A DNA stretch of 64,000 nt from Candidatus Poriferihabitaceae bacterium (GTDB lineage Bacteria > Pseudomonadota > Gammaproteobacteria > Arenicellales > Poriferihabitantaceae). Positions within the stretch are counted from its first letter, which is position 1. Each line of letters starts with the position of its first letter. The stretch covers positions 1,583,380 through 1,647,379 of the forward strand of contig OZ243931.1 of assembly GCA_965214055.1 (NCBI GenBank), read 5' to 3'. Of the stretch, positions 10,445-33,337 are shown one piece after another. Made by a program: the position numbers and the translations under genes. The notes beneath the pieces are model-generated. The model was not told the origin of the DNA. It ran no database searches and worked only from the letters and a program-made list of their open reading frames with translations.

Positions 10445-10484
10445 AGTCGGTTTTTATCCTTTATAGCGTTCGTTTCTCAGTTAA

Positions 10485-10931: not shown

Positions 10932-10944
10932 TATACTAAGTATA
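10932..10944. promoter_or_regulatory. 6-1-6 palindrome TATACT-A-AGTATA in the ABM/hxlR divergent region (candidate HxlR operator)
   Basis: Perfect inverted repeat flanked by direct ATTTACT copies (10926-10932 and 10944-10950). It lies in the 94-nt AT-rich spacer between the divergent ABM and hxlR genes. Confidence 0.3.
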
Positions 10945-10950
10945 TTTACT

Positions 10951-11307: not shown

Positions 11308-11724
11308 TATTCATCTACAAAAACGCAAATACCGACCCAAGTTGTTGAAAGCGCCTATGTCCGCTTCTAGCCGACAAGTGACGTATTCGAAGTCTATAAA
11401 ATAGCGCTAATTCGCTTTATTTAGTGAAAAAGGACTCGAATCAGAAAAATTTTTAGTGCGGGTTCAAATCCCAAACTTTAGGCAATAATCTGTCGGTATT
11501 TATGACGGTATAAAGGCAAAATTGAACTGAATATAACGATTAAAAACAAATAGTTATAACTTGATTCAATACCGGCCCTGATACCATGTCGACCAACAGG
11601 GGAAGGTGATACAGGGGGACACACATGGCTGGCCGGATGGTTGCTCGGAGAACCCCTTTGCGGACATCACGGCAGCCAGAACGATTGCGTGGAAAATCAA
11701 CCGTAAAAATATAGGGTACAACGT

Positions 11725-12750: not shown

Positions 12751-13006
12751 CGGTTTGTATATTTCACAGGGGCAAAAAATAAACGAACTTTCAGATTAAA
12801 ATCTGGAGAGTTTACGGGGGGTGGTTCTACCAGGTCATCACGAATCCCGTTGCCGCTGTCATCCTTCTCGACACAGGTCCAGTAACGCTTGCGTTTGTCC
12901 TTTTTTCGAGTGGCGTCGCACCACCTCTTGTACCATCTCACGCAGTCTCCCCAATGCCATCATTGCGCTGCACAGTTCGATTGCTCTGTGACCTCTGTGC
13001 ATTCGC

Positions 13007-14233: not shown

Positions 14234-14620
14234 TTCCATCTCCGAGTCCCCGACAATTGGAATTATCCATACCGGCTGATTGGAAGTCAATGGGCCGCTA
14301 ATTGGAACTCTCCAGGCCGCGATTTGGAAGGAGTTGGGAGGGGAAAGTCACATAATCGCCAAGATATTTGTTCTTTTCGAAATAGTGGGTATTCCACGGC
14401 TGTAAAGATCACCCTCTGTATTGCTGATCCATTCCGCGATAGCATTCGGTACCTGCGAGGCCGACGGTTTCCGTCGAACGGCGACATTAAGCTGAAAATT
14501 TTCACGGTTCACACGGAACCCCCAGGAATTGATTTTTGCCGCTTTGCCCCGCAGAATCAGGGGGTTTTCTGCCGGACACCAAAAAATTCACTGGGACCGT
14601 ATTCAACCCGTAAAAATATT

Positions 14621-15721: not shown

Positions 15722-15735
15722 TCGGGAGTGGTACG

Positions 15736-17430: not shown

Positions 17431-19025
17431 CGGGTCCGATAACCTGTGGCGAAGCCACCATGCGGCTTCTGGAAAAATATGGTGTCACGACGGTATTTGG
17501 CATCCCCGGCGTGCATACCCTGGATTTTTGCCGGGGCCTGGATCATGGTCGGGAGATTGTCCATGTCCAGACACGGAACGAGCAGGGTGCCGGGTTCATG
17601 GCGGAAGGCTGGGCCCGGGCCACGGGTCAACCCGGTGTGGCGCTGGTGATTTCCGGGCCCGGGGTCACCAATGCCAGTACGGCCCTGGGCCAGGCCTGGG
17701 CGGACAGCCTGCCCATGCTGCTGATTTCGGCCGAGGCGGCCAGCTATACCATTGGGAAGGGATGGGGGGTCCTGCATGAAATTACGGAACAGAAAAAGGT
17801 CACCGACCCCCTGACCGCATTCTCCGCTACGGCACGGTCTGCAGCGGATGTGCCGGGGTTGCTTGCCCAGGCGTTTTCCCTGTTTGCCAGCCAGCGACCC
17901 CGGCCGGTTCACATCTCCATCCCCATCGATGTTCAGGCACAGATGGTGAATGAGGCATGGCAGCCGGTGAAACTGCCCGCAGCGGCCGTGCCGGGAAACC
18001 GGCAGATCGAAGAGGCCAGAAGGTTGTTGATCCGTGCAAAACGGCCTCTGCTCATGCTGGGCGGGGGTGCCTGGCAGGCAGGTCCTGCACTGGTTTCCAT
18101 CGCCGAATCCCTGGGTGCCATGGTGATTGCCTCCACAGCGGGGAAGGGAATTGTACCGGACGATCACCCCCTGTCCCTGTCGGCTTCCACCGTTCGTCCA
18201 GAGGTGCTGGGTTTCCTCAAGGAGGCCGATGTGATCCTGGCGGTGGGCAGCGAGTTGTCGGAAACCGACAGTTTTGTAGAACGTATGGACCTGCAGGGAA
18301 AATTGATCCGGGTGGATATTGACGTATCCAAGATGAACGACTTCTATCCCGCTGATCTGGCCATCGTCGCCGATGCAAAAGTGACCATGGAGAGGCTGGC
18401 CACCGCGTTGAGTGACCATGTTCCGGTTGACCGGCCGGGTGCGGAAGACCGGGTAGCGGCCATTCGTACCCAAATCAGTGCCAATCTTTCCGCGTCTGAA
18501 ATCCAGCACACGGCCCTGCTTGGGCGGCTTGCAGACATTGCGCCACCGGATACCATCTGGTGCGGAGATGTCTGCCAGCTGGTGTATACCGGTGCCTTTG
18601 CCATGCCGATGAAAAGTCCGCGGAAATGGTTCTATCCTGCAGGGTACTGCGCACTGGGGAATGCCCTTCCGAATGCTATCGGCGCCAAGCTGGCACAGCC
18701 CGACAGCCCCGTGGTGGTGCTGGCTGGTGACGGCGGTTTCATGTTTACCATGCCGGAGCTGATGACTGCTGCAGAACGGGAGCTGGGCCTGCCCATCGTG
18801 ATCTGGGAGAATGGCGGCCTGAAACAGATTCAGGACGACATGGACAGCCGAAACATTCCCCGGGTAGGGGTTGAAGGAGTGAATCCGGATTTTGTGGCGC
18901 TGGCCCAGGCGTGTCACTGCCATGGCGTGAGACCCCGGAACCCGGAAGAATTCGAAACCGCATTTTTGGATGCATTGAACCGCGACCGGCCTACTGTCAT
19001 CGTGGTTGAGGAACAGCGAGACTGA
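17427..19025 (+). CDS. thiamine diphosphate-dependent enzyme (acetolactate synthase / 2-oxoacid decarboxylase-like)
   Basis: TVFGIPGVHTLDF...RNEQGAGFMAEGWARATGQPGV...GPGVTNA (Pyr domain), and GDGGFMFTMPELMTAAERELGLPIVIWENGG (ThDP-binding motif). Its ATG overlaps the GMC stop (ATGA). Confidence 0.9.
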   Translation: MTGPITCGEATMRLLEKYGVTTVFGIPGVHTLDFCRGLDHGREIVHVQTRNEQGAGFMAEGWARATGQPGVALVISGPGVTNASTALGQAWADSLPMLLISAEAASYTIGKGWGVLHEITEQKKVTDPLTAFSATARSAADVPGLLAQAFSLFASQRPRPVHISIPIDVQAQMVNEAWQPVKLPAAAVPGNRQIEEARRLLIRAKRPLLMLGGGAWQAGPALVSIAESLGAMVIASTAGKGIVPDDHPLSLSASTVRPEVLGFLKEADVILAVGSELSETDSFVERMDLQGKLIRVDIDVSKMNDFYPADLAIVADAKVTMERLATALSDHVPVDRPGAEDRVAAIRTQISANLSASEIQHTALLGRLADIAPPDTIWCGDVCQLVYTGAFAMPMKSPRKWFYPAGYCALGNALPNAIGAKLAQPDSPVVVLAGDGGFMFTMPELMTAAERELGLPIVIWENGGLKQIQDDMDSRNIPRVGVEGVNPDFVALAQACHCHGVRPRNPEEFETAFLDALNRDRPTVIVVEEQRD

Positions 19026-19028
19026 ACG

Positions 19029-20501
19029 ATGAGACAGTATCAATACTATGCAGGGGGACAGTGGCATGATCCCGCTTCCGGACGATGGATCGACAGTGAG
19101 AACCCCGCGTCGGGGGAAGTCTGGGCGAGAATTCCCGACTGCAATGTCGAGGATGTTGATCGGGCGGTGAAGGCCGCTCACGAGTGCTTTGACCAGGGGC
19201 CCTGGGGCAGGATGCATCCTGCACAACGGGGGCGGCTGATCCGCCGGATCGGGGATGCCATTGTAAAACACGCTGACCGCCTGGGTGAGGTGGAAACCCG
19301 GGACAACGGCAAGTTACCCAAAAATATCACGCCTTCTTTGACATCCTGGCAGACGGAAAGCTTTTATTATTATGCCGGAATGTGCGACAAATTCGAAGGG
19401 TCACTGCTGCCTTCGGAGGTTCCGGACATGCTGAACTACCTGCGTTGGGAGCCCTATGGGGTCTGCGGGCTGATCACTGCATGGAACTCCCCGCTTGGGG
19501 TGTTGATCTGGAAGCTGGCCCCCGCGCTGGCGGCAGGCAATGCCGTGGTGATCAAGCCGTCGGAACATGCGTCCGCCTCCACCATTGAACTGATGGAGGT
19601 TTTGCAGGAAGCGGACTTGCCGCCGGGGCTGGTGAATGTGGTGACCGGATACGGCAAGACCACAGGTGAACCCCTTGCAGATCACCCCTGTGTGCGCATG
19701 GTGAGTTTTACCGGCGGAATCCCCGGCGGCCGTGCCGTGGCCGAAGTGGCTGCGCGGAAAGTAAAACCGGTGGTCATGGAACTCGGGGGCAAATCTCCCC
19801 AGATTATCCTGGAAGATGCGGACCTTGATCTGGCGGTCAACGGGGTGGTATCCGGGATTTTTCCGGCAACGGGGCAAAGCTGTATATCGGGTTCCCGGTT
19901 ACTGGTACCACGGTCCCTGCTCGAAGAGTTCAGCAACCGACTGGTGGCGGTGGCATCCCGGGCACGGGTGGGGCATCCTGACGACCCCATGACCCAGGTG
20001 GGACCCATTGCCAATCGGCCACACTACGAAAAGGTGTTGCGCGATATCGAAAGTGCCGTGGAAGCCGGGGCCAGATTATTGCTGGACGGTCGCGGCAAGG
20101 GACCGGACAGGGGGTATTACATCGGCCCCACGGTTTTTTCAGGGGTGACCAATCAGGCCCGGCTGGCCCAGGAGGAAGTCTTCGGCCCGGTGGTAGCCAT
20201 CATTCCCTATGACGATGAGGAGGAGGTTGTCCAAATTGCCAACGACACGGTCTTTGGCCTGGCGGCGGGTATCTGGACCCGGGACACAAACCGCGCAATC
20301 CGCATGGCAGACCGTATCCAGGCCGGCACCGTGTACATCAACAATTACTTCAATGCCGCGACCCAGTCCCCCGTCGGTGGATTCAAGCAATCCGGCTATG
20401 GCCGGGAAAACGGTTTTGAAGGGATGCGCTGTTTCATGCAGACCAAATCGGTTTGGCTGGCAACCAATCCGGACCAGCCGGACCCGTTTCCGGATGAATG
20501 A
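19029..20501 (+). CDS. NAD(P)-dependent aldehyde dehydrogenase
   Basis: ITAWNSPLGVLIWKLAPALAAGNAVVIKPSE, VSFTGG, MELGGKSP and GQSCISGSRLLV, with the catalytic Glu and Cys in canonical context. Confidence 0.9.
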   Translation: MRQYQYYAGGQWHDPASGRWIDSENPASGEVWARIPDCNVEDVDRAVKAAHECFDQGPWGRMHPAQRGRLIRRIGDAIVKHADRLGEVETRDNGKLPKNITPSLTSWQTESFYYYAGMCDKFEGSLLPSEVPDMLNYLRWEPYGVCGLITAWNSPLGVLIWKLAPALAAGNAVVIKPSEHASASTIELMEVLQEADLPPGLVNVVTGYGKTTGEPLADHPCVRMVSFTGGIPGGRAVAEVAARKVKPVVMELGGKSPQIILEDADLDLAVNGVVSGIFPATGQSCISGSRLLVPRSLLEEFSNRLVAVASRARVGHPDDPMTQVGPIANRPHYEKVLRDIESAVEAGARLLLDGRGKGPDRGYYIGPTVFSGVTNQARLAQEEVFGPVVAIIPYDDEEEVVQIANDTVFGLAAGIWTRDTNRAIRMADRIQAGTVYINNYFNAATQSPVGGFKQSGYGRENGFEGMRCFMQTKSVWLATNPDQPDPFPDE

Positions 20502-20734
20502 ACCCCTCCGGCCTGATCCAGGGGGCCGGGTCCTCCGGTTATCGGGATGAAAAACGCACCACGGGATGATCCTGAAATACTGTCAATCCAATTTTAAAAT
20601 ATCACTGTTTTAATCTCACGGGAAACCTTAAAATCGATCATCCTTCAATTCCGGAAAAACTGGACAAAAAACCCGCCGGTTCAGGCCCGGTTCCGGGAAC
20701 CCGCTTACTTTCCGACTATTTTCTGTGACCTGCC

Positions 20735-21563: not shown

Positions 21564-22259
21564 ATGACAGACGACTACGATGACGATATAGACCTGTCTT
21601 CGTTGCCCGATGATGAGCTTGTCGAGCAGATGCATGACGATCTGTATGATGGATTGCGTGACGAAATTATTGAAGGTACCGAAATCCTGCTGGAGCGCGG
21701 ATGGGAGGCGACCAAGGTACTGGACGATGCGCTGGTGGAAGGAATGCGCATTGTGGGCATTGATTTTCGGGATGGAATTCTTTTTGTTCCGGAAGTGCTG
21801 ATGTCTGCCAATGCCATGAAAGGCGGCATGTCCATACTGCGGCCGCTTCTGGCGGAAACCGGTGCCGAGCCCATTGGCAAGGTGATCATCGGAACCGTAA
21901 AGGGGGATATTCACGATATCGGTAAAAACCTGGTCGCCATGATGCTGGAAGGAGCCGGATTTGAAGTCATCAATCTGGGAATCGACAATCCGGTGGAAAA
22001 CTACCTGAATGCGATCGAGGAACACCAGCCCGATATCGTCGGCATGTCCGCACTGTTGACCACCACCATGCCTTACATGAAAGTGGTCATCGATACCATG
22101 GTGGAGAAGGGAATCCGGGACGACCATATCGTTCTCGTTGGAGGAGCGCCGCTGAACGAGGAATTCGGAAAGGCCATCGGAGCGGATGCGTATTGCCGGG
22201 ATGCGGCGGTGGCCGTCGAAACCGCCCAGACATTGATCGCGGAAAGGCGCGCCGCCTAA
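21564..22259 (+). CDS. cobalamin-binding corrinoid protein (MtgC/MtbC-like methyl carrier)
   Basis: Four-helix cap region followed by a Rossmann B12 domain with the His-ligand motif GTVKGDIHDIGKNLV...GFEVINLG and SALLTTT. The N-terminal 30 residues are strongly acidic (MTDDYDDDIDLSSLPDDELVEQMHDDLYD). Confidence 0.9.
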   Translation: MTDDYDDDIDLSSLPDDELVEQMHDDLYDGLRDEIIEGTEILLERGWEATKVLDDALVEGMRIVGIDFRDGILFVPEVLMSANAMKGGMSILRPLLAETGAEPIGKVIIGTVKGDIHDIGKNLVAMMLEGAGFEVINLGIDNPVENYLNAIEEHQPDIVGMSALLTTTMPYMKVVIDTMVEKGIRDDHIVLVGGAPLNEEFGKAIGADAYCRDAAVAVETAQTLIAERRAA

Positions 22260-22281
22260 ATGTTGCCGGGACATTGCAGCG

Positions 22282-22941
22282 ATGCCTTCCGGCCCTAGCC
22301 CTGGCCCTGGTTCCAGTACCAACCGGGTCCTGGTGATCGCCTGCGGTGCCCTTGCTCACGACCTGGTGCGGGTCAGGGAGATCAATGGCTGGGATCATAT
22401 GGACATTCAGTGCCTGCCCGCAGAATGGCACAACCGGCCCCAGCTGATTCCCCAGGCGGTGCGGAAGAAAATCAATGAAAACCGGAGTCGCTACAGGCAC
22501 ATGTTTGTGGCGTATTCCGACTGCGGGACCGGTGGATTGCTTGACCGGGTTCTCGAGGAAGAAGGTGTGGAACGCCTCCCCGGAGCACATTGCTATGAAA
22601 TGTTTTCCGGAACCAGTCAGTTCAATGCACTCCATGAAGCGGAAATCGGGACATTCTACCTGACCGATTTTCTGGCCAATCATTTTGACCGGCTCATTGT
22701 AAAGGGGCTCGGTCTGGACCGATACCCGGAATTGAAGGAGCAGTATTTCGGAAACTATACGAAACTGGTTTACCTGGCACAAAAGGACGATGCAGCCCTG
22801 GACACAATGGCCAGGCAGGCATCCGAGTACCTGGATTTGGAGTACCAGCGGGTCAGAACCGGTGACGGACATTTGACATCGGCCCTGGCCGTACAAATCG
22901 GCGGTTCGGTGGAGAACCCTGAAGCAGTGTCCAGGCATTGA
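22282..22941 (+). CDS. DUF1638 domain protein
   Basis: VLVIACGALAHDL...FVAYSDCGTGG...AHCYEMF, the pattern I associate with DUF1638 proteins encoded next to corrinoid methyltransferase genes. Confidence 0.75.
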   Translation: MPSGPSPGPGSSTNRVLVIACGALAHDLVRVREINGWDHMDIQCLPAEWHNRPQLIPQAVRKKINENRSRYRHMFVAYSDCGTGGLLDRVLEEEGVERLPGAHCYEMFSGTSQFNALHEAEIGTFYLTDFLANHFDRLIVKGLGLDRYPELKEQYFGNYTKLVYLAQKDDAALDTMARQASEYLDLEYQRVRTGDGHLTSALAVQIGGSVENPEAVSRH

Positions 22942-23273
22942 GCAGGAGGAGACCGCGATTGGCAAAATTAATTACAGTTTACTGGCGGGATATTCCTGCA
23001 CAGGTGATCGCAAAGGAGCGCCGTCAATCCGAAAAGGTTCCGCTCAGCGACCGTTTTGCCGAGGCCATTGACAGTGCGGCAATGCGGGCCGGAAAAGGCG
23101 GGACCGATGCGTATCTGGAGGAATGGAAAAGAGTCGGCAGGAACTGTGGAGAGGATTTGAAAGCCGAAGCCGAAGCCGAAGCGGCAAGACTGGAGGCGGC
23201 CTATGATAAGGAGAGATTGCTTTCCCTGATCCGGAATCATGGTGTTGAGCCCCCAGGCGAAATTCAATCCTGA
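22938..23273 (+). CDS. small Virulence_fact-domain protein of unknown function
   Basis: ITVYWRDIPAQVIAKE...LSDRFAEAIDSAAMRAG matches the so-called virulence factor domain found beside methyl-THF:corrinoid methyltransferases. Start is TTG 22938 or TTG 22959, coupled to the DUF1638 stop. Confidence 0.65.
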   Translation: MSRRRPRLAKLITVYWRDIPAQVIAKERRQSEKVPLSDRFAEAIDSAAMRAGKGGTDAYLEEWKRVGRNCGEDLKAEAEAEAARLEAAYDKERLLSLIRNHGVEPPGEIQS

Positions 23274-23389
23274 CATTCCGTGGTGCGGCGACGCATCGTG
23301 GATTCAACGGAAGGAGGGTTGTTGACAGGATGTGCCATTTGCCCCGTGATACCCGGACAATATTACTATAAAGAAGATCGAGAAAAAGA

Positions 23390-24292
23390 ATGACAGACAC
23401 GGTGATCAGTTCAGCGACGAAGGAAGTGCGGATAGGGTTTGAGCATCCATTCGTAATTATTGGGGAACGCATTAACCCCACCGGCAGGAAGATTCTGGCG
23501 GAGGAAATGAAAAACGGGGACTACAGCAGGGTGGAAAGGGATGCTCTCGCCCAGGTTGAGGCCGGGGCCCGGATGCTGGATGTGAATGCCGGGATTCCGC
23601 TGGCCGATGAACCGGGAATCCTGGCGGAATCCATCAAACTGGTGCAGTCCATTACCGATGTACCCCTGTCCATTGATTCCTCCATCGTGGCCGCCCTGGA
23701 AGCGGGACTGGCGGTATACCAGGGCAAGCCACTGCTCAATTCGGTGACGGGGGAAGAGGAGAGGCTGGAAGCCGTATTGCCATTGGTGGCCAAGTACCAG
23801 TGTGCCGTGGTGGCGATCTCCAATGATGAAGCGGGAATATCCGAGAACCCGGATGAACGGTTTGACGTGGCAAAGAAAATCATTGAGCGGGCTTCGGACC
23901 ACGGAATTCACCACAGCGATATTGTCGTCGACCCCCTGGTGATGCCGGTGGGGGCGGTGAACAGTGCAGGGCGACAGGTCCTGCACCTGGTGAAACGGCT
24001 TCGTGAAGAACTGAAAGTGAACACCACCTGTGGAGCGTCGAATTTCAGTTTCGGCATTCCCAACAGAAAAGGCATGGATGGGCATTTCCTGAGCATGGCG
24101 ATCGGTGCCGGCATGACTTCAGCCATCACCAATCCCCTGCACGAAGAAGTCATGCAGGGGGTCATGAGTGCGGATGTGGTCATGGGACACGACGTCAATT
24201 GTGCACGATGGCTGAAAAAATACCGTCAGCCCGTGGAGGAGGCCGGCGGGGCCGGTGGAAGGCGTGCCGGTCGACGCCGCCGCAGGGGGTAG
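23390..24292 (+). CDS. methyltetrahydrofolate:corrinoid methyltransferase (pterin-binding TIM barrel, MtgA/AcsE-like)
   Basis: IIGERINPTGRK...MLDVNAG...PLSIDSS...LLNSVTGEE...VDPLVMPVG...TTCGASNFSFG, the pterin-binding family signature. The C-terminal tail is GGRRAGRRRRRG. Confidence 0.85.
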   Translation: MTDTVISSATKEVRIGFEHPFVIIGERINPTGRKILAEEMKNGDYSRVERDALAQVEAGARMLDVNAGIPLADEPGILAESIKLVQSITDVPLSIDSSIVAALEAGLAVYQGKPLLNSVTGEEERLEAVLPLVAKYQCAVVAISNDEAGISENPDERFDVAKKIIERASDHGIHHSDIVVDPLVMPVGAVNSAGRQVLHLVKRLREELKVNTTCGASNFSFGIPNRKGMDGHFLSMAIGAGMTSAITNPLHEEVMQGVMSADVVMGHDVNCARWLKKYRQPVEEAGGAGGRRAGRRRRRG

Positions 24293-24312
24293 GACGATGA
24301 TTCGGTTCTCCT

Positions 24313-24696
24313 GTGGTGGATGAACCCGGAACAAGGACGGGAGGCTGCCTGTGCGAGGGCGTCCGGTACCGGATTGTTGGGGAAATTCGCCCGGTAATCA
24401 ACTGCTTTTGCAGCCAGTGCCGGAAAACATCGGGACACCACTTTGCCGCAACCCGGGCAGGTCTGGACCAGTTTACGCTGTTGAGTGATGAAACCCTGGC
24501 CTGGTATTCGTCTTCTGATGAGGCAAAGCGGGGATTTTGTAATCGGTGCGGCAGCAGCCTGTTCTGGCAAAGGCGGGGGACCGATACCATCAGTATCACG
24601 GCCGGGACACTGGACGGGCCCACCGGACTGTCCACCATGAAAAATATTTTTGTGGAAGAGAGGGGGGATTATCATGATCTTCCGGTATTGAAATGA
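24313..24696 (+). CDS. GFA (glutathione-dependent formaldehyde-activating / CENP-V) family zinc protein
   Basis: GGCLCEGVRYRI...CFCSQCRKTSGHHF...FCNRCGSSLFW, the Cys-rich GFA pattern. GTG start. Confidence 0.8.
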   Translation: MVDEPGTRTGGCLCEGVRYRIVGEIRPVINCFCSQCRKTSGHHFAATRAGLDQFTLLSDETLAWYSSSDEAKRGFCNRCGSSLFWQRRGTDTISITAGTLDGPTGLSTMKNIFVEERGDYHDLPVLK

Positions 24697-26705
24697 ACGA
24701 AACCCCGGGAATGGTTCAAATCGTCTTTCTGCCCTCTGGCAAACGTGGGGAGATTGCGGCAGGGAAATCGGTTCTGGAAGCGGCCCAACAGCTGGGCGTG
24801 GACCTGGATACCGTCTGTGGCGGGCGTGGAATTTGCGACCGTTGCCAGATTGATCACAGCGTCGGTGAATTTGCCAAATTCAGAATCCATTCAAACCCCG
24901 ATCACCTTTCCCCCCACAGTGCCAGCGAAAAAGCGTTTTTTTCGGCGGATACTGCCCCCACCCGCCGGCTGGGCTGCCAGGCAAAACTGGCTGGTGATGT
25001 CGTCATTGATGTTCCGCCGGAAAGTCAGGCGCACAAACAGGTGGTCCGCAAACGCCTGGATGTGCACAACATTGCCGTCAATCCTTCTGTTCGCCTGCAC
25101 TATATTGAAGTGCCGGAACCCAACATGCATGACCCCACCGGTGACCTGCAGCGGGTACTGGATGCACTGGAATTTGACTGGGGGCTGACACAGGTCCGGT
25201 TTGATTTTCATTTGCTGGCATCACTCCAGGAGACCCTGCGTGCCGGCGACTGGAAAATAACGGTGGCGGTTCACCATGAAAATCAGGCCATGGCCATTTG
25301 GCCGGGATTGAAAAACCGGGTCTACGGGGTGGCGGTGGATGTGGGTTCCACCACCATTGCCGCGCATCTGTGCGACCTGGTGAGCGGCCAGGCCGTGGTC
25401 TCCACGGGGCGGATGAATCCCCAGATTCGGTTTGGTGAGGATTTGATGAGCCGGGTGTCCTACGTGATGATGAATCCGGGGGGGGAAGTTGAAATGACCC
25501 GCGCGGTTCGCCAGGCACTGCAGGGCCTGGTTGAGGACCTGGTCAAGGAGGCTGAGGTGGACCTCCAGGATGTGGTGGACATGACCCTCGTGGGGAACCC
25601 GGTGATGCATCATTTGTTGCTCGGCATCAACCCGGTGGAACTGGGGGGTGCCCCCTTTGCACTGGCCACGGACCAGGCCATCCAGACGGCCGCCAGGAAT
25701 CTTGATCTGCATATCAACCCGGGGGGCAGGGCGTATGTCCTGCCCTGTATCGCCGGGCATGTCGGAGCGGACGCAGCGGCGGCCACCCTGTCTGAAGCCC
25801 CCTATGAGCGCGATGAATTGACACTGCTGGTGGATGTCGGCACCAATGCGGAAATTGTTCTGGGCAACCGGAAACGGATGTTGGCCGCTTCCAGCCCAAC
25901 GGGTCCTGCATTTGAAGGCGCACAGATCAGTGGTGGCCAGCGGGCAGCACCGGGGGCCATTGAACGGGTCCGCATCGACCGGACGACCCTGGAACCCCGG
26001 TTCAGGATTATTGGCAGTGAACGGTGGTCCGACGACCCCGGCTTTGTGGAGTCCACCGCTGAAACCGGGGTCACCGGGATTTGTGGCTCAGGAATCATTG
26101 AAGTTATTGCTGAAATGTATCTCGTGGGACTGGTCAAAGCCGATGGGGTTATTGACGGTTCGCTGTCGGACCGGACCCCGCGGCTGGCCCTGGACGGAAA
26201 AACCTGGAGTTATACCCTGTATGACGAAGGACCGGTTCAGGTCATCATTACACAGAATGATGTTCGCGCAATCCAGCTGGCGAAAGCGGCATTGTATGCG
26301 GGCGCGCGCCTGTTGATGGACAAGCTCAAAGTGGATACCGTTGACCGCATCCGGCTCGCCGGCGCATTCGGTGCACACATTGATGTCAAATATGCCATGG
26401 TGCTGGGCATGATCCCGGATTGCCGGCTTGAACATGTCACGTCTGCGGGGAATGCGGCCGGGACCGGGGCAACGATCACCTTGCTGGATCGGGATGCCAG
26501 GTCCGAAATCGAGGATGTTGTCCGGCGCATCCAGAAAGTCGAAACCGCAGTTGAAGCCAAATTCCAGGACCATTTCGTGGAGGCGCTGGCCATTCCACAC
26601 AAAACGGCTCGTTTTGAAAACCTGTGTCAGGAAGTGGACCTTCCCGTCCCGGACAATCCGGGGCCGGCGACCAGTGCCCGGCCGAGGCGCAGACGACGCC
26701 GGTAA
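24693..26705 (+). CDS. corrinoid reductive activase (N-terminal 2Fe-2S ferredoxin plus ASKHA ATPase domain, RamA/RACo-like, DUF4445)
   Basis: The N-terminus VQIVFLPSGK...CGGRGICDRCQ is plant-type ferredoxin-like. Then GVAVDVGSTTIAAHL, LVDVGTNAEIVLG and PTGPAFEGAQISGG actin-fold ATPase motifs. The C-terminal tail is SARPRRRRRR. ATGA overlap with the GFA gene. Confidence 0.85.
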   Translation: MNETPGMVQIVFLPSGKRGEIAAGKSVLEAAQQLGVDLDTVCGGRGICDRCQIDHSVGEFAKFRIHSNPDHLSPHSASEKAFFSADTAPTRRLGCQAKLAGDVVIDVPPESQAHKQVVRKRLDVHNIAVNPSVRLHYIEVPEPNMHDPTGDLQRVLDALEFDWGLTQVRFDFHLLASLQETLRAGDWKITVAVHHENQAMAIWPGLKNRVYGVAVDVGSTTIAAHLCDLVSGQAVVSTGRMNPQIRFGEDLMSRVSYVMMNPGGEVEMTRAVRQALQGLVEDLVKEAEVDLQDVVDMTLVGNPVMHHLLLGINPVELGGAPFALATDQAIQTAARNLDLHINPGGRAYVLPCIAGHVGADAAAATLSEAPYERDELTLLVDVGTNAEIVLGNRKRMLAASSPTGPAFEGAQISGGQRAAPGAIERVRIDRTTLEPRFRIIGSERWSDDPGFVESTAETGVTGICGSGIIEVIAEMYLVGLVKADGVIDGSLSDRTPRLALDGKTWSYTLYDEGPVQVIITQNDVRAIQLAKAALYAGARLLMDKLKVDTVDRIRLAGAFGAHIDVKYAMVLGMIPDCRLEHVTSAGNAAGTGATITLLDRDARSEIEDVVRRIQKVETAVEAKFQDHFVEALAIPHKTARFENLCQEVDLPVPDNPGPATSARPRRRRRR

Positions 26706-26830
26706 CCGGTGGCGAACACAATGCGTTGCCATGCCATGGTTTGATTTCCGGTTGGAGATGGCCGGTCCACCGCCCGGAGAATTCAGGGTCCCGGGTCCGT
26801 TCAACGTCCTGTTTTGCCGGTAGCCACAGG

Positions 26831-27313
26831 GTGACCGGGAAGATTCAGCGGGCAGGTGCCGGGGATGTTGACGCCATCGGCGCCTGTGTGAACGACGCCT
26901 ATCGCCACTATATCCAGCGCATGGGAAAGGTCCCCGGTCCCATGCTGGACGATTACGCCGGCCGCGTGAAAAACGATCACACCTATGTCATCAAGTCCCG
27001 GGACCGGGTCATCGGGCTGTTGGTTCTGATTGAGGATGAAAAGGGAATGCTGCTGGACAACATTGCCGTGCACCCCGATGTCCAGGGGCAGGGAATCGGA
27101 AAAAGACTGATGGATTTTGCAGAAGACCTGGTCGTGCGGTCAGGGTATACGAGGATCACGTTGTATACCCATGTAACCATGACCGAGAGTTTTGCACTGT
27201 ACAAACATCTCGGTTATGCCGTGAGCGAAAGAAAAACCGTGGATGGATACCGGCGGATTTACATGGAAAAGACCCTGGAGAAGCCGCAGACGGACCCGGC
27301 CCCGCTGCCTTGA
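26831..27313 (+). CDS. GNAT family N-acetyltransferase
   Basis: From GTG 26831: ...VIGLLVLIEDEKGMLLDNIAVHPDVQGQGIGKRLM...LYTHVTMTESFALYKHLGY, acetyl-CoA binding motif A. The track ORF from 26624 overlaps the activase and is probably over-extended. Confidence 0.7.
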   Translation: MTGKIQRAGAGDVDAIGACVNDAYRHYIQRMGKVPGPMLDDYAGRVKNDHTYVIKSRDRVIGLLVLIEDEKGMLLDNIAVHPDVQGQGIGKRLMDFAEDLVVRSGYTRITLYTHVTMTESFALYKHLGYAVSERKTVDGYRRIYMEKTLEKPQTDPAPLP

Positions 27314-27456
27314 GTCGTTTGGGGAAGAAAACGATGCCCCGGGGCGGGGCAACGTGGCGCCGCCATCATACTCCGTCATTGCCGTGTTGCAGGGCCTCCT
27401 GGTGCGCACCGCTGCCTGGGAACCAGGTCTGGCCGGTAACGGGGTTCCTTCCGAGT

Positions 27457-28995
27457 CTAGATGTTGGAATCGGCAAATGAATGCTTGCGTTGTTCCATGT
27501 ATGCAAGCAGGGCTTCGTCAATGGCGGGGTCCAGCGCCGGGGGGACATATTCCCGGAGCATTTTTTTCCAGAGCGTGTTGGCCCGGGAAATGGCATCCTG
27601 GGACCCTTCCAGCTCCCATTGTTCAAAGCTGTTGTTATCCGCGATATTGGATCGGTAAAACGCGGTCTTGAAATTGTTCTGGGTGTGGCCACAGCCGAGA
27701 AAGTGGGCCCCGGGCCCGACTTCCCGGATGGCACTCAGTGCCTGCCCGTTTTCAGTCAGGTCGGTCCCTTCGGCGAAGACCGCCATCATGCCCAGCTGGT
27801 CGGCATCCATCACCAGTTTTTCGTAGCCCGAAGCCAGCCCCCCTTCCAGCCAACCGGCTGCGTGAAGAACAAAATTCACCCCTGCGGTCATCGTGGGCTG
27901 AATGGTATTGGCGCTTTCGTAGGCCGCCTGGGCGTCCGGAATCTTTGAGGCACACAGTGCGCCGCCACTTCGGAACGGCACCCCCAGTCGACGGGCCAGC
28001 GCCGCACAGCCGTTCAGCACCAGGGCGGGTTCCGGGGTGCCGAAGGTGGGGGCCCCGGACTGCATGGAAATGGAGCTGGAAAAGGTGCCGAAAACCACCG
28101 GAGAACCGGGCCGTACAAGTTGGGTGAAGGCCATGCCCGCCATGGCTTCGGCAAGTATTTGTGCCATGGTCCCGGCCACGGTCACCGGGGACATCGCTCC
28201 GGCCAGTATGAAAGGGGAGATGATGCTGGCCTGGTTGTTTCGGGCATAGACTTCCGACGCTCCCAGCATGGTTTCGTCGAAGGTCATGGGTGAGTTCGCA
28301 TTGATCAGGTTAATGACCACCGTGTGACTGTCCACGAATTCGCTGCCAAACAGGATCTTGCACATATTGACGGTGTCTTCGGCCCGTTCCGGCTGGGTCA
28401 CTGAACCCATGAACGGCTTGTCGCTGAATTTCATATGGCTGTACACCATATCGAAGTGCCGCTTGTTTACCGGAAGATCCGTGGGTTCGCAGACGGTACC
28501 GCCGGAATGGTGCAGGGAGGGCAGCATGTAAGTCAATTTCACGAGATTCCTGAAATCCTCGATCATGGCATAACGCCGGCCCTTGTCCAGGTCACGAATG
28601 AATGGCGGACCATAAACCGGTGCAAAGACGGTGTGCCTGCCCCCGATTTTTACGTTTCGATGGGGGTTTCTGGCGTGTTGCTCAAAGACTGCCGGGGCGG
28701 AATCCTGGATAATTTTCCGGCACATGCCTTCGGGGAAGCGAACCCGTTCCCCATCGATATCTGCCCCGGCTTCCCTGAAGAGCCTGAGGGCGGGTTCATA
28801 CCGGAAATCAATGCCGATCTCCTTTAGGATGGTCTCGGCATTGCTCTCGATCAGCGATAGCCCTTCTTCGCTGAGTAAAACGTATTCAGGGATTTTTCGC
28901 GTAATATAGGGGCGGATCGTCGGGACCGCCCTGCTTTCGGTTTGCTGTCGTCCTCGACGGCCGCCTCGTTTTCGTCCTCTTGCTCTGTCTGTCAT
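27457..28995 (-). CDS. MttB-superfamily (trimethylamine methyltransferase family) protein, non-pyrrolysine type; likely quaternary amine:corrinoid methyltransferase
   Basis: 512 aa and uninterrupted, with no in-frame TAG. ...LLSEEGLSLIESNAETILKEIGIDF...FREAGADIDGERVRF...RNVKIGG..TVFAPVYGPPF...NANSPMTFDE...ILAGAMSPVT is the family pattern. The N-terminus is Arg-rich (MTDRARGRKRGGRRGRQQ). Confidence 0.9.
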   Translation of the reverse strand: MTDRARGRKRGGRRGRQQTESRAVPTIRPYITRKIPEYVLLSEEGLSLIESNAETILKEIGIDFRYEPALRLFREAGADIDGERVRFPEGMCRKIIQDSAPAVFEQHARNPHRNVKIGGRHTVFAPVYGPPFIRDLDKGRRYAMIEDFRNLVKLTYMLPSLHHSGGTVCEPTDLPVNKRHFDMVYSHMKFSDKPFMGSVTQPERAEDTVNMCKILFGSEFVDSHTVVINLINANSPMTFDETMLGASEVYARNNQASIISPFILAGAMSPVTVAGTMAQILAEAMAGMAFTQLVRPGSPVVFGTFSSSISMQSGAPTFGTPEPALVLNGCAALARRLGVPFRSGGALCASKIPDAQAAYESANTIQPTMTAGVNFVLHAAGWLEGGLASGYEKLVMDADQLGMMAVFAEGTDLTENGQALSAIREVGPGAHFLGCGHTQNNFKTAFYRSNIADNNSFEQWELEGSQDAISRANTLWKKMLREYVPPALDPAIDEALLAYMEQRKHSFADSNI

Positions 28996-29398: not shown

Positions 29399-30493
29399 AT
29401 GGCCAAAGATATCTATGCGGTAAACGGAATTTCCATCACCAAAATTTATGGGGCAGGTGCTTCGGGTGTGACCGCACTGAATGACGTATCCGTCTCCATC
29501 AAGGACAACGAATTCTTTACATTACTGGGCCCATCGGGGTGTGGAAAAACCACGTTGCTGCGTTGTATCGCCGGTTTTGAGCAGTTGTCTTCCGGTCGAA
29601 TCCTGTTGTTTGGCGAAGAAATTGACCACTTGCCGCCGAATCAGCGGCCGGTCAATACCGTTTTCCAGCACTATGCTTTATTCCCGCATATGACCGTCGC
29701 CGAAAATATCGGCTTCAGTCTGCGGATGCTGAAGCAGGGAGATGCCAAAATCAGGGCGACGGTGGAACGAATGCTTGATCTGGTACACATGACCGCGTTT
29801 GCCAGCCGTCATCCGGCGCAATTGTCCGGAGGTCAACAGCAGCGGGTTGCCCTGGCACGGGCATTGGCGAGTCACCCGAAAGTTTTGCTCCTGGATGAAC
29901 CGCTGTCCGCGCTGGACCTGAAATTGCGACAGGAAATGCGGGTGGAATTGAAACAGGTACAGGAAGAAACCGGGATCACGTTCATCTTTGTTACCCATGA
30001 CCAGGAGGAGGCCCTGACCATGAGTGACCGGATTGCGGTCATGTCCGATGGAAAAATCCAGCAGACCGGCAAGCCCACCGAGATCTATGAAAACCCGATC
30101 AATCACTTTGTTGCGGATTTCATCGGTGAAACCAATTTTCTTGCCGCCACGGTGCAATCCGTCGACGCTGACCACGCCCGGTGCGTACTCGCCAATGGGG
30201 CGCAACTGTCCGCAAACCTGGCGGTCCCCAGGGAACGGGGCAGCAAGGTAACGATTTGTATCCGTCCCGAGAAAATTTCTCTGGACAGCCCCGGTACAGC
30301 GGCCGGCGGGATCGACGGAACCGTAGACCGGTTGATCTATTTGGGGACCGATACGCATTATCTTGTACAACTCGGCAACCAGACCTCTGTGCTGGCAAGA
30401 ATACAGAACAGTCACCAATCCCCCCGGTTCAGGCCTGGAGACCCGGCAAGGGTGGTGCTGGATGAATCCGCATGCCGGGTATTGGCGGATTGA
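29399..30493 (+). CDS. ABC transporter ATP-binding protein, PotA/spermidine-putrescine type
   Basis: From ATG 29399: LLGPSGCGKTTLL (Walker A), LSGGQQQRVALARAL (signature), LLLDEPLSALD (Walker B), and a C-terminal TOBE-like domain. Confidence 0.9.
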   Translation: MAKDIYAVNGISITKIYGAGASGVTALNDVSVSIKDNEFFTLLGPSGCGKTTLLRCIAGFEQLSSGRILLFGEEIDHLPPNQRPVNTVFQHYALFPHMTVAENIGFSLRMLKQGDAKIRATVERMLDLVHMTAFASRHPAQLSGGQQQRVALARALASHPKVLLLDEPLSALDLKLRQEMRVELKQVQEETGITFIFVTHDQEEALTMSDRIAVMSDGKIQQTGKPTEIYENPINHFVADFIGETNFLAATVQSVDADHARCVLANGAQLSANLAVPRERGSKVTICIRPEKISLDSPGTAAGGIDGTVDRLIYLGTDTHYLVQLGNQTSVLARIQNSHQSPRFRPGDPARVVLDESACRVLAD

Positions 30494-30494
30494 C

Positions 30495-31433
30495 ATGAAT
30501 GTAACGGAAACGACACCCCGGCGAACCCGGCCTGGAAGGAGTCGTGCAAGACAGATTTCAATAGCCCGGGCCTGGTTGCTTTTCCCCGCGTTGCTGCTTG
30601 TTTTTTGTTTTTTGATCCTCCCGCTTTGCATTATTGTTGTCTATTCCTTTCTGACCCCTGGAACGTATGGCGGGGTGATTTGGGATTTTTCCCTTGAATC
30701 CTATATCCAGTTTTTGTTTGAACGGGACTTCCTGGATGACACCCTGGCGTTTTCTCCCGCCTATCTGCAAATTTATTTCCGTTCTTTTGTTCAGGCGCTG
30801 GTCACCACCATCGTTTGTTTCCTGATTGGGTTTCCCACCGCCTATTACATCGCGACCCTGCCCGAACGCAAAAAGTACATGTGGGTGTTGTTGATTACGG
30901 TTCCGTACTGGATCAATTTGCTGATCAGGACCATTGCGATGCTGTTCCTGATTCGCAATGAAGGACCGCTGAATTATGCGTTGATATCCATCGGGGCAAT
31001 CGATGATCCAATCAAGATTGCCTATACCAATTTCGGTGTGGGGCTCGGCCTGGTCTACACCTATCTGCCGTTTATGGTCCTGCCGCTTTATGCGGCCATT
31101 GAACGATTTGATTTTCGCCTGGTGGAAGCCTCCTATGATCTGTATGCGAATCGATGGACGATTCTGCGGAAAATAATCTTGCCGTTGGTGGTGCCCGGCA
31201 TTGTTGCAGGCTGCCTGTTGGTGTTTATTCCAAGCCTGGGTTCATTTATTGCCCCGGATTTGCTGGGAGGGGGTAAAAAGCTGATGATCGGAAATTTGAT
31301 CGCTTTACAGTTTCAGGGGTCCCGGAACTGGCCCTTTGGTTCGGCTGCGGCGGTGATACTGATGACCATGGTTCTGTGTGCATTGATGGTCTATATCCGC
31401 CAGCAGAGCAAGTCCCGGATTGCGTTGCACTGA
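30495..31433 (+). CDS. ABC transporter permease (PotB-like)
   Basis: From ATG 30495, one nt after the potA-like stop. Six-TM pattern with the EAA loop (AIERFDFRLVEASYDLYANRW). Confidence 0.85.
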   Translation: MNVTETTPRRTRPGRSRARQISIARAWLLFPALLLVFCFLILPLCIIVVYSFLTPGTYGGVIWDFSLESYIQFLFERDFLDDTLAFSPAYLQIYFRSFVQALVTTIVCFLIGFPTAYYIATLPERKKYMWVLLITVPYWINLLIRTIAMLFLIRNEGPLNYALISIGAIDDPIKIAYTNFGVGLGLVYTYLPFMVLPLYAAIERFDFRLVEASYDLYANRWTILRKIILPLVVPGIVAGCLLVFIPSLGSFIAPDLLGGGKKLMIGNLIALQFQGSRNWPFGSAAAVILMTMVLCALMVYIRQQSKSRIALH

Positions 31434-31441
31434 TTGGACCC

Positions 31442-32242
31442 ATGGGTAAAACACACGATCTGAAACGTTATCCCGGTTTTGCGGGAATGACCTGGGCCTG
31501 CCTTGTTTTTTTATATGGCCCGCTCATTGTCATTGCGCTGTATTCGTTCAATGAAATCCGGTCGATCACCGTGTGGGGAGGATTCAGTTTTTCCTGGTAC
31601 GCGAAAGCCTTTAACAACGACCTCATTCAACGGGCCACCTACAATTCCCTGATTATCGCAGTATCCGCCGCCACGGCGTCCACCATCTTTGCCACCGCTG
31701 CCGCACTGGCCATCATACGAAACCGGGCTTTTCGCGGCAGGGAGGCCAGCATCGGGATTATCAGCTTGCCACTGATGGTGCCTGAAATCGTGACCGCCAT
31801 TGCATCGCTGGTATTCTTCGTGCTGGTCGGGATTCCGTTGGGAATCGGCAGTATCTTGCTGGCCCATACCGTATTTTGTATTCCGTTTGCCTATTTGCCC
31901 ATTACCGCCCGGCTGGAAGGCATAGAAAGTCACTACGAGGAAGCTGCCAAAGACCTGTACGCCGACAGCTGGCAAACCTTTCGGTATGTCATGTTGCCCA
32001 TGATGTTTCCGGGTATCGTGGCCGGATTTATTCTGGCATTTATCATTTCCCTGGACGATTTTATTATTACCAATTTCGTCGCCGGACCCGGGGCTACGAC
32101 CCTGCCCCTGGCAATCTATGGACTGGTTCGAACCGGGCTGACACCGGAAATCAACGCGGTATCCACGTTGCTTTTACTGGTGTCCATATTTTTTGTGACG
32201 CTTTCTTACCTGCTGGGGAAAAAGCCCGGTTCCAGTGTATAA
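31442..32242 (+). CDS. ABC transporter permease (PotC-like)
   Basis: From ATG 31442: MGKTHDLKRYPGFA.... EAA loop LEGIESHYEEAAKDLYADSW. Confidence 0.85.
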   Translation: MGKTHDLKRYPGFAGMTWACLVFLYGPLIVIALYSFNEIRSITVWGGFSFSWYAKAFNNDLIQRATYNSLIIAVSAATASTIFATAAALAIIRNRAFRGREASIGIISLPLMVPEIVTAIASLVFFVLVGIPLGIGSILLAHTVFCIPFAYLPITARLEGIESHYEEAAKDLYADSWQTFRYVMLPMMFPGIVAGFILAFIISLDDFIITNFVAGPGATTLPLAIYGLVRTGLTPEINAVSTLLLLVSIFFVTLSYLLGKKPGSSV

Positions 32243-32302
32243 TCGCCCGTTGTGAACCCGCTGGCGGTTATCAATTTTCAATACATCCTATAGGAGAAGA
32301 AC

Positions 32303-33337
32303 ATGAAAAAGATTTCCATTGTTTTTGTATCTTTCTTGAGCCTGGTTTTTCTATCCGGTCCCGTACTGGCCGAGGGGAAGCTGAATATTTATAACTGGTT
32401 CGATTACCTTCCCCAGGAATTGATCGACAAATTTTCCGCAGAGTATGATGTCGAAGTCACGATGGACACCTATGATTCCAATGAATCGCTGCTGGCCAAG
32501 TTGAAATCCGGCGTCACCGGTTACGATGTAGCCGTCCCCGGGGATTACATGGTGCAGATATTGATTGAAGAAGGCATGCTGGAACAGGTCAACGCTTCCG
32601 AATTTGAAAACTTCGGGAACATGGACCCGGACTGGGTGGACGTGTATTTCGACCCGGGCAGACAGTATTCGGTGCCCTATCAGTGGGGAACCACCGGTTT
32701 TATGGTGGATACCGAAGTCTATGACGGGGATATTGATACCCTGGAGATCATTTTCAACCCACCGGCAGAACTGCAGGGCAAGATCAACATGCTTAAAGAT
32801 GTCAATGACGTTCTGAACGCCGGATTGCGTTATCTTGGACTGGACCGTTGCAATGAGAACCCGGAAGACCTGAAAAAACTGAACGATTTGCTGACCAATG
32901 CCAAACAACACTGGTTGAGTTTCAATTCGGATGGCGCCAAGGAAGTCCTGGTTTCCGGGGATGCCGCGGCAGGGCAAATCTGGAATGGATTCGGCATGCG
33001 GGCACGGGCTGAAAAAGCGAGCCTGAAATATGCGTACCCGAAAGAAGGATTTACCGGTTGGATGGACAATATTGTCGCACTCAAGGGGGGCCCCAATCTG
33101 GAGAATGCAAAGAAATTCATGAATTTCATGCTTGTGCCTGAAAACGCGGCCACACTCACCAATTTCGCACGCTACACGGCAGGGGTTTCCGGCACCGAGC
33201 CGTTCCTGGATGATGACCTGAAGACTGCACACGAAACCAATCTGCCGGCATCCGCGCCGACCCCTGATTTTGTACCTCCTTGCAGTCCCGAGGTGGTCAA
33301 GCTGTACGACCGGATCTGGACGAATTTGCTGAAGTAA
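32303..33337 (+). CDS. periplasmic substrate-binding protein, PotD/PotF family
   Basis: Signal peptide MKKISIVFVSFLSLVFLSGPVLA, then KLNIYNWFDYLPQELIDKF...YDVAVPGDYMV...VPYQWGTTGF, typical of polyamine-type SBPs. Confidence 0.85.
   Translation: MKKISIVFVSFLSLVFLSGPVLAEGKLNIYNWFDYLPQELIDKFSAEYDVEVTMDTYDSNESLLAKLKSGVTGYDVAVPGDYMVQILIEEGMLEQVNASEFENFGNMDPDWVDVYFDPGRQYSVPYQWGTTGFMVDTEVYDGDIDTLEIIFNPPAELQGKINMLKDVNDVLNAGLRYLGLDRCNENPEDLKKLNDLLTNAKQHWLSFNSDGAKEVLVSGDAAAGQIWNGFGMRARAEKASLKYAYPKEGFTGWMDNIVALKGGPNLENAKKFMNFMLVPENAATLTNFARYTAGVSGTEPFLDDDLKTAHETNLPASAPTPDFVPPCSPEVVKLYDRIWTNLLK

Follow-up and report, generated by a model that had tools for sequence, protein, structure and literature searches.

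A cobalamin-dependent methyl-transfer locus of the MtgBCD type, probably acting on glycine betaine, in a Candidatus Poriferihabitaceae bacterium, and a small PF13769 protein probably linked to its reductive activase

The window analyzed here comprises 64,000 nucleotides (nt) of contig OZ243931.1 (assembly GCA_965214055.1) from a Candidatus Poriferihabitaceae bacterium, and its positions 21564 to 28995 harbor a corrinoid-dependent methyl-transfer locus with a gene for an MttB-superfamily methyltransferase. According to the original prediction, which had been made from the sequence alone, seven co-directional genes converge at this locus on a minus-strand MttB gene. Open reading frames (ORFs) for all eight genes were found at exactly these coordinates and strands, and the predicted domains were confirmed by Pfam matches, all of which far exceed the curated cut-offs. 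The locus contains the following features:

21564-22259, plus strand: MtgC, corrinoid (cobalamin) carrier of 231 amino acids (aa); PF02607 (B12-binding_2, cap) and PF02310 (B12-binding, Rossmann)
22282-22941, plus strand: DUF1638 protein, 219 aa; PF07796, 92 bits
22959-23273 (ORF from 22938), plus strand: small PF13769 ('Virulence_fact') protein; ORF of 111 aa, about 104 aa when corrected; 87 bits
23390-24292, plus strand: MtgD, pterin-binding TIM barrel, 300 aa; PF00809 (Pterin_bind), 96 bits
24313-24696, plus strand: GFA-family zinc protein, 127 aa; PF04828, 72 bits
24693-26705, plus strand: RACo/RamA-like activase, 670 aa; PF17650, PF17651 and PF14574 (linker, middle and C-terminal ASKHA domains; 96, 160 and 301 bits)
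26831-27313 (ORF from 26624), plus strand: GNAT acetyltransferase; ORF of 229 aa, about 160 aa when corrected; PF00583, PF13508 and PF13673
27335-27351, no strand assigned: GC-rich hairpin, minus-strand T-run; pattern match from a consensus terminator scan only
27457-28995, minus strand: MtgB-type MttB-superfamily methyltransferase, 512 aa; PF06253 (MTTB), 762 bits

From mtgC to the RACo gene, the intergenic gaps are 22, 17, 116, and 20 nt, followed by a 4-nt overlap of the GFA stop and the RACo start, and this spacing is operon-like. Since homologues are 99 to 104 aa long, the PF13769 protein most likely starts at TTG 22959 (104 aa). For the GNAT protein, a start near GTG 26831 is most likely, this being where the domain sets in and the length of a syntenic homologue being 151 aa. 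The hairpin between the convergent GNAT and mttB genes is likely to be the mttB terminator. Apart from a PYLIS_3 match inside mttB, no RNA element, cobalamin riboswitch included, was detected in the locus by Rfam at gathering threshold. A promoter scan yielded fewer sigma-70-like sites than in shuffled sequence and was uninformative.

Substrate methyltransferase, carrier, tetrahydrofolate (THF) methyltransferase, and reductive activase are all encoded at the locus, as judged from Pfam domains and motifs, and the module is thus complete, as had been proposed. At its center stands a non-pyrrolysine enzyme of the MttB family; this claim was upheld by the PF06253 match and by an uninterrupted ORF, open for 512 codons and free of TAG. 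The in-frame UAG of pyrrolysine (Pyl)-type MttB proteins is missing, and with the model for this type, TIGR02369, the window protein reached 256 bits against a cut-off of 525. The Pyl-type MttB of Methanosarcina barkeri (7xcl) belongs to the same Pfam family, but aligns over the C-terminal half only (108 bits). A further likeness to the M. barkeri gene is the match of the Rfam family PYLIS_3 to the mttB coding sequence at 27858-27957 on the minus strand (40.6 bits, gathering score 38). The codon at the 5' end of this match is that of Leu347, which also occupies the position equivalent to pyrrolysine as deduced from this 5' end and the offset of the 7xcl alignment. A function of the match as a recoding signal was considered and rejected; because no TAG is in frame, it is read as coding-sequence homology.

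Among solved structures, 4yyc was the best match to the window MttB (about 67-68% identity, 765 bits), followed by the glycine betaine methyltransferase MtgB of Desulfitobacterium hafniense (2qne/9yce) with 44% identity. Identity to the MttB of a plasmid cluster in Paracoccus methylovorus was 69%, and to an MttB paralogue on pSymB of Sinorhizobium meliloti 55%.

The remaining core proteins carry the sequence features of their proposed functions. In the MtgC translation, KGDIHDIGKN with the DxHxxG motif of the His-on cobalamin ligand is followed by SAL and then by GGAP. Its closest matches in the PDB were 1y80, the MttC chain of 7xcn (7xcn_M), and B12 domains of MetH. MtgD matches NCBIfam PRK07535 with 361 bits (cut-off 259) and, in the PDB, MeTr 2yci (1e-40), 4o0q, and the MetH folate domain 1q7m. 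Aligned to MeTr 2yci, MtgD keeps GERIN, LDVN, IDSS, LNSV, VDPL, and GASNFS, which we take to be the pterin-contact motifs of MeTr and MetH. The His ligand and the pterin-binding residues, whose loss had been named as a point that would speak against the module, are thus retained. MtgD is a methyl-corrinoid:tetrahydrofolate methyltransferase, whose action is probably reversible. The N-terminus of the activase contains CGGRGICDRC...C, aligned to the 2Fe-2S site of RACo from Carboxydothermus hydrogenoformans (3zyy), and the alignment to this protein is full-length (3e-90), covering the N-terminal 2Fe-2S ferredoxin, linker, middle, and ASKHA domains, the four-domain architecture of RACo (3zyy, 4c1n) and methanogen RamA. 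Unlike these proteins, the window activase stays below the equivalog cut-offs of AcsV and RamA (393 bits against 800 for the AcsV model NF040756). No acs genes were found in the 64-kb window, and CODH/ACS or CoFeSP genes are likewise missing there, which sets it apart from a CODH/ACS-linked RACo (AcsV). DUF1638 and PF13769 are the partners of RACo in the window lineage, and a few genomes encode a fusion of RACo and PF13769.

This combination of parts is already known from published work. In Phaeobacter inhibens, transposon fitness data assigned methionine synthesis to a B12 carrier, a protein that binds pterin, and a homocysteine methyltransferase, all three of them stand-alone (Price 2018, PMC5764234). 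In Ruegeria pomeroyi, knockouts showed MtgC and MtgD to be essential for growth on glycine betaine, and the MttB-family protein MtgB, RamA, and DUF1638 were induced on this substrate (Mausz 2025, PMC12478193). In the same study MtgBCD genes were found in marine Alpha-, Gamma-, and Deltaproteobacteria, and MtgBCD(E) was described as an aerobic glycine betaine demethylase of dual function. Deletion of mtgB1 together with the oxygenase genes gbcAB abolished growth of P. inhibens on glycine betaine (bioRxiv 10.64898/2025.12.19.695462). The window locus is therefore regarded as a member of a known system, and the earlier view of it as uncharacterized had to be given up, the same gene set having been described in the first two of these reports and a knockout of mtgB1 in the third.

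The window shares with the Ruegeria and Phaeobacter MtgBCD(E) systems a non-Pyl PF06253 MtgB, a stand-alone MtgC with cap and B12-binding domains, a stand-alone pterin-binding MtgD, the pair of a RamA/RACo-like activase and DUF1638, and an aerobic proteobacterial host. The window carrier is also very close to those of this family (74-90% identity within the orthologous loci). The parts are scattered in these genera, whereas they form one locus in the window, where MtgE, MetF2, and dimethylglycine/sarcosine genes are not found nearby. PF13769 and GFA genes are embedded in the window operon and are unmentioned in the papers on these genera. The window host is also different, probably a sponge-associated member of the Arenicellales.

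Further counterparts are known from S. meliloti and Paracoccus, to whose clusters the window MttB is orthologous with conserved neighbors; orthology and synteny were likewise seen with the Azoarcus cluster. By tblastn, 4yyc matched an S. meliloti record with 100%. In this record it is surrounded by genes for RACo, MtgD, MetF, a MetF C-terminal protein, a 'virulence factor', a formyltransferase, DUF1638, and a cobalamin-binding protein and, further on, by bmt (MtgE) and a glycine betaine ABC transporter. This set of genes agrees with the colocalized MtgBCDE locus described for S. meliloti (Mausz 2025, PMC12478193), and 4yyc, annotated as 'putative trimethylamine methyltransferase', is the MttB of this locus. 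Identities between the window and the S. meliloti cluster are about 67-68% for MttB, 78% for MtgC, 61% for MtgD, 57% for RACo, 54% for PF13769, and 47% for DUF1638, and MttB adjoins the carrier gene in S. meliloti. There, MttB is divergent from the carrier, while in the window it is convergent with the operon end. The genes for MetF, the MetF C-terminal protein, formyltransferase, bmt, and the glycine betaine transporter are additional in S. meliloti, and GFA and GNAT genes are missing; a small ORF between its MtgD and RACo genes does not encode a GFA protein. The record used (CP090106.1, S. meliloti strain Ak57) is titled 'plasmid pSymB', has the size of a chromosome (3.72 Mb), and is probably mislabeled. 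The plasmid cluster of P. methylovorus is equivalent to the S. meliloti one.

The D. hafniense MtgB, MtgC, and MtgA proteins are said to form a glycine betaine:THF system, reportedly described by Ticak in 2014. The window locus resembles it in the MttB-superfamily fold without pyrrolysine and in the three-component logic. It differs in the low MttB identity of 44%, in the strictly anaerobic host of the D. hafniense system, and in the scores of the window carrier and THF methyltransferase, which do not reach the equivalog cut-offs set by NCBIfam for the proteins of anaerobes (208 bits against 370 for the carrier with the MtgC model). Furthermore, the D. hafniense system as described is without DUF1638 or PF13769.

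Related loci were collected by a scan of one genome per species. At least 558 relatives were found, and the best 80 (67-85% MttB identity) were used for neighborhood analysis, genes within 10 kb of the MttB orthologue being counted. Among the matches listed, the closest MttB relatives are from sponge-associated metagenome-assembled genomes (MAGs) of Candidatus Poriferihabitaceae, Arenicellales, followed by Woeseia, Granulosicoccaceae, Steroidobacteraceae, Kiloniellales, Hyphomicrobiales, and Burkholderiales. Genes for RACo were present in 35 of the 80 loci, for MtgD in 28-29, for MtgC in 25 (74-90% identical to the window carrier), for PF13769 in 23, and for DUF1638 in 21. A GbdR-like AraC/DJ-1 regulator was encoded in 20, sarcosine oxidase alpha (SoxA) in 18, MetF in 15, dimethylglycine dehydrogenase-like proteins (DMGDH) in 12 plus 6, MtgE (PF02574) in 12, and a BCCT transporter in 7. 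As to the conservation of gene neighborhood that had been proposed as a check, the core set is recurrent, GFA is recurrent with varying placement, and for GNAT none of the 80 loci has a homologue. At least one glycine betaine-related neighbor, i.e. a GbdR-like regulator, dimethylglycine/sarcosine oxidation genes, or BCCT, was detected in 43/80 loci. In Woeseia the order is BCCT-MttB-MtgC-DUF1638-PF13769-MetF-MtgD-RACo-HD-DMGDH-GFA, and on the Azoarcus plasmid pAZKH, ProVW and a GlxA-family regulator, PurU, the core operon, and a betaine binding protein are found. In the closest relatives (L002-L005 and L082), a GbdR-like regulator is divergent from mttB, at the place taken by a PotABCD-like operon in the window. 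Because of these 43 loci, glycine betaine is considered the most likely substrate of the window MttB. The original prediction had held that the substrate cannot be read from the sequence; comparative genomics, with the regulator next to the gene in the closest relatives, permits a reasonably good assignment.

The substrate pocket was compared with that of D. hafniense MtgB, in which Y97, R312, H348, and F356 contact betaine according to mutagenesis and a ligand-bound structure (Picking 2026, PMC13080624). In both pairwise and multiple alignment, Y128, R342, and H378 of the window protein correspond to Y97, R312, and H348, while F356 is replaced by G386. The D. hafniense segment I-L-Q-Y-F reads W-L-E-G-G in the window (382-386). 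In an alignment of 68 sequences, consisting of the window protein, 4yyc, and orthologues from related loci, the Arg, His, and Trp positions are invariant, the Tyr is present in all but one, and Gly-Gly replaces Tyr-Phe in 67 of the 68, one sequence having Arg for the second Gly. The change of F356 to Gly together with the new Trp is therefore a clade-wide remodeling of the glycine betaine site and not specific to the window; among the members of this clade are loci clearly devoted to betaine catabolism. W382 may supply the second aromatic face of the amine pocket in place of F356.

With these results, the locus can with good confidence be viewed as an MtgBCD-type cobalamin-dependent glycine betaine:THF methyl-transfer system with reactivation by RACo, DUF1638, and PF13769, possibly doubling as the core of a split methionine synthase. 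In the proposed cycle, MtgB, a TIM barrel of the MttB family, would bind glycine betaine and transfer one N-methyl group to the Co(I) of MtgC cobalamin, yielding dimethylglycine and methyl-Co(III)-MtgC. MtgD would then pass the methyl group from MtgC to tetrahydrofolate and regenerate Co(I). Oxidation of Co(I) to inactive Co(II), to be expected often in an aerobe, would be reversed by the RACo/RamA-like activase using its 2Fe-2S cluster and ATP, with DUF1638 and presumably PF13769 as accessory parts of this repair step. Methyl-THF would be oxidized for energy; alternatively, MtgC and MtgD could run in reverse and, with an MtgE homocysteine module encoded elsewhere, serve methionine synthesis. 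For the window organism, we infer both the substrate and the direction of flux.

Several points weigh against this view. The evidence for glycine betaine comes from genetics and proteomics in other genera and, in the window, from context. Direct orthology of MttB was examined for the S. meliloti and Paracoccus clusters, and up to seven MttB paralogues with unknown substrates are encoded in Proteobacteria (PMC12478193). F356, one of the four experimentally defined betaine-binding residues, is Gly throughout the clade, and genes for MetF, dimethylglycine/sarcosine enzymes, MtgE, BCCT, or a GbdR-like regulator were not found in the 64-kb window. The original prediction had taken placement in a biochemically characterized clade with the same neighborhood to mean that the module is a known one; this has largely come true, except that the characterization is genetic and proteomic rather than biochemical.

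Some of these points would also fit the same architecture acting on another methylated substrate of MttB, such as carnitine, choline, proline betaine, some other quaternary amine from the host, or a methylamine. Such a substrate would agree with G386 and the clade-specific Trp in place of F356, with the lack of dimethylglycine/sarcosine genes in the window, and with the importer divergent from mttB, which is of the PotD family and not BCCT or ProU. Characterized MttB relatives act on several quaternary amines, the proteobacterial paralogues are uncharacterized, and carnitine is present in sponge tissue (PMC9999580). The Gly/Trp signature, however, runs through the 68 sequences, with Trp in all and Gly-Gly in 67, among them those of clusters with GbdR-like regulators, DMGDH, Sox, BCCT, or ProVWX, and the GbdR-like regulator adjoins the gene in L002-L005 and L082. 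The carboxylate-binding Arg and His as well as the Tyr are retained, and the PotD-like transporter is not conserved alongside mttB. A different substrate is therefore considered unlikely. More room has to be given to the view that the MtgC-DUF1638-PF13769-MtgD-RACo operon has as its main role to form the core of a split cobalamin-dependent methionine synthase, with MtgE encoded elsewhere and betaine demethylation as a secondary function. This is compatible with an MtgBCD assignment and is a real, if less probable, alternative as to the primary role. MtgC and MtgD mutants of R. pomeroyi and mutants in the P. inhibens homologues are methionine auxotrophs (PMC12478193, PMC5764234), and about 70% of the genomes with MtgBCD are without MetH (PMC12478193). 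MtgE (PF02574) lies near the MttB orthologue in the 12 loci mentioned, bmt is part of the S. meliloti locus, and in two loci, L081 and L086, the core operon occurs without a nearby MttB. On the other side, no PF02574 gene for a stand-alone MtgE is located within the 64-kb window, and linkage of the MttB gene to the operon is tight in the window and its relatives.

A glycine betaine system could also have reached this position recently as part of a mobile island, and the module had in fact been described earlier as inserted in an otherwise housekeeping context. The housekeeping nature of the flanks was borne out by RNA and family scans, which revealed RNase P RNA, UDG, UvrC, tRNAs, MsbA, LpxK, KdsB, Fmt, RsmB, TrkA, IlvA, TopA, HisHAF, and TsaD in the rest of the window, and homologous clusters are plasmid-borne in Paracoccus, Azoarcus, and Terrarubrum. 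The insertion itself was not confirmed. The order PRT-MtgC-DUF1638-PF13769-MtgD-GFA-RACo-...-GNAT-MttB is syntenic in three related genomes (L001, L002, and L082), and PRT, cluster, MttB, in some cases the regulator, and MsbA/LpxK/KdsB are syntenic in several sponge-associated relatives with 80-85% MttB identity. In L082, UDG-UvrC-PgsA-x-PRT is directly followed by the same cluster, which is therefore taken to be ancestral at the window site. The GC content of the cluster, 0.50-0.61, is not anomalous and resembles that of the rest of the window, and the ORF and family scans of the window gave no sign of an integrase, a transposase, or a repeat boundary. The variable segments are neighbors of the cluster, a block of about 11 kb at 9.5-20.6 kb and the PotABCD operon. 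A recent acquisition is thus very improbable.

Of the four embedded proteins for which the original prediction knew of no role in such systems, DUF1638 already has one. DUF1638 and the RamA-like 2Fe-2S/ASKHA protein are needed by P. inhibens to synthesize methionine and were assigned to B12 reactivation, for which no specific mechanism for DUF1638 was offered (Price 2018, PMC5764234). Taken with its induction on glycine betaine mentioned above, this gives genetic support to DUF1638 as an accessory factor for cobalamin reactivation. Its residues C21, C44, C81, C104, H50, and H103 are invariant. The AlphaFold2 (AF2) model (pLDDT 87) shows a Rossmann-like alpha/beta fold, and a fold search against the PDB yielded only generic Rossmann-like matches (best E = 5e-3, TM 0.4 or less). 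For PF13769, GFA, and GNAT, the statement stood in the literature searched.

The PF13769 protein is the part of the locus that adds to what is known. It is mentioned neither in Price 2018 nor in Mausz 2025 and its supplements, and a full-text literature search did not return it. Searches yielded 4119 homologues; each of the best 120 listed stands alone and is about 100 aa long. In 40 homologues sampled from these 120, identity per column is about 68%, and WRDIPAQ, the AAMR core of an AIDxAAMR stretch, YL..W, and one Cys are invariant. In all 19 loci holding both, the gene comes immediately after DUF1638, on the strand of the latter, and in four further loci without a carrier nearby it comes directly after MttB. 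In a plasmid collection it occurred in only eight records. Its neighbors were inspected or aligned at four loci, those of S. meliloti, Azoarcus, Terrarubrum, and a Competibacteraceae MAG (L081, from outside the plasmid collection), and the corrinoid core was present in all four. PF13769 is not universal, however, because the Paracoccus cluster has none nearby.

Natural fusions to the activase were detected as well. On the Terrarubrum flagellatum plasmid NZ_CP091854.1 (L086:9001-11283), a coding sequence for 760 aa specifies PF13769 N-terminal to a complete RACo with Fer2, linker, middle, and ASKHA domains. Its RACo portion shares 59% identity with the window activase, and carrier and DUF1638 genes precede the coding sequence. 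The same clean junction is found in two proteins of a metagenomic database (P0245 and P0246), while a third candidate (P0247) from a noisy assembly was left out of the count. By this Rosetta-stone pattern, PF13769 is likely to be a partner of the activase. A 449-aa gene at L088:5582-6931, just upstream of a PF13769-RACo gene, combines B12-binding cap, B12-binding domain, and DUF1638; this carrier-DUF1638 fusion may be an artefact, because the assembly is prone to frameshifts and RACo is in pieces.

Placement after DUF1638, joint occurrence with MtgC-MtgD-RACo in Alpha-, Beta-, and Gammaproteobacteria, high conservation, and the RACo fusions form the basis for the suggestion that PF13769 is a hitherto unrecognized conserved subunit of the RACo/RamA-type reductive-activation machinery in aerobic Proteobacteria, acting with DUF1638 on MtgC. 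On balance we favor this suggestion. The AF2 model of the protein reached a pLDDT of only 70, and a Foldseek search against the PDB produced nothing below E = 1.8. As for the GFA protein below, its role is one that we infer from sequence comparisons and gene context.

The GFA protein shows the zinc pattern CxC, CxCxxC, CxxC. Its gene is positioned between those for MtgD and RACo in the window and in L001, L002, and L082, in each case with a stop that overlaps the start of RACo, and it occurred within 10 kb in 10/80 loci at varying positions, in Woeseia after the dimethylglycine dehydrogenase-like gene. A link to formaldehyde from downstream demethylations is plausible, and the protein is possibly involved in formaldehyde or thiol chemistry. 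The GNAT gene, without homologue in any of the 80 related loci, has a counterpart at the same position in one close relative only (L082, 54% identity); it was rejected as a component and judged to be a lineage-specific neighbor, probably outside the methyl-transfer system.

Genes next to the cluster were also considered as possible parts. Divergent from mttB, between it and msbA, lies the following operon:

29399-33337, plus strand: PotABCD-like ABC importer; NCBIfam potA subfamily above cut-off, membership in the system uncertain

Weakly similar transporters were found in 3/80 loci, and the one in Paracoccus is not orthologous. The PotD-like binding protein scores far below the PotD and PotF equivalogs of NCBIfam. 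With this poor conservation, the importer was not accepted as a part of the system and was left as uncertain. Upstream genes for a GMC oxidoreductase, a thiamine pyrophosphate (TPP) decarboxylase, and an aldehyde dehydrogenase were examined as a choline-to-betaine route. This was rejected, all being below the BetA/BetB cut-offs, practically absent from the 80 loci, and missing in the syntenic L082.

These genes are part of the variable block at about 9500-20600 (about 11 kb), which comes after three tRNA genes (9098-9515) and is absent from L082, where PgsA, a 193-aa ORF, and PRT are adjacent at the equivalent site. The block has a low GC content of 0.45-0.46 at 10-12 kb, a DUF4143/AAA ATPase gene at 13007-14290 (minus strand), and a tight operon of isopropylmalate/tartrate dehydrogenase-like, GMC oxidoreductase, TPP decarboxylase, and aldehyde dehydrogenase genes. 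The TPP decarboxylase belongs to the 5-guanidino-2-oxopentanoate decarboxylase subfamily. The block may be an acquired catabolic island. Elsewhere in the window, two long ORFs, 2696-4450 (plus strand, 584 aa) and 43261-44418 (minus strand, 385 aa), had no Pfam match at E <= 1e-5; the latter is overlapped by a 483-aa ORF at 43294-44745 (plus strand).

While the kind of system encoded here is already known, the proposed link between PF13769 and the activase is new. According to a recent proposal, much of the turnover of osmolytes in the ocean goes through cobalamin-dependent demethylation of glycine betaine, which would also drive B12 demand there, and the window presents the whole MtgBCD system in one compact locus. 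The pathway is extended to host-associated Gammaproteobacteria, the nearest relatives being sponge symbionts of the Arenicellales (Candidatus Poriferihabitaceae), for which host-derived betaines are a plausible substrate. The orphan crystal structure 4yyc is tied to the MtgB orthogroup, and attention is drawn to a clade-wide change of the betaine pocket, in which Gly takes the place of F356 and a new Trp appears. PF13769 is a likely missing component, which may matter for the in vitro reconstitution of aerobic MtgBCD or of the split methionine synthase.

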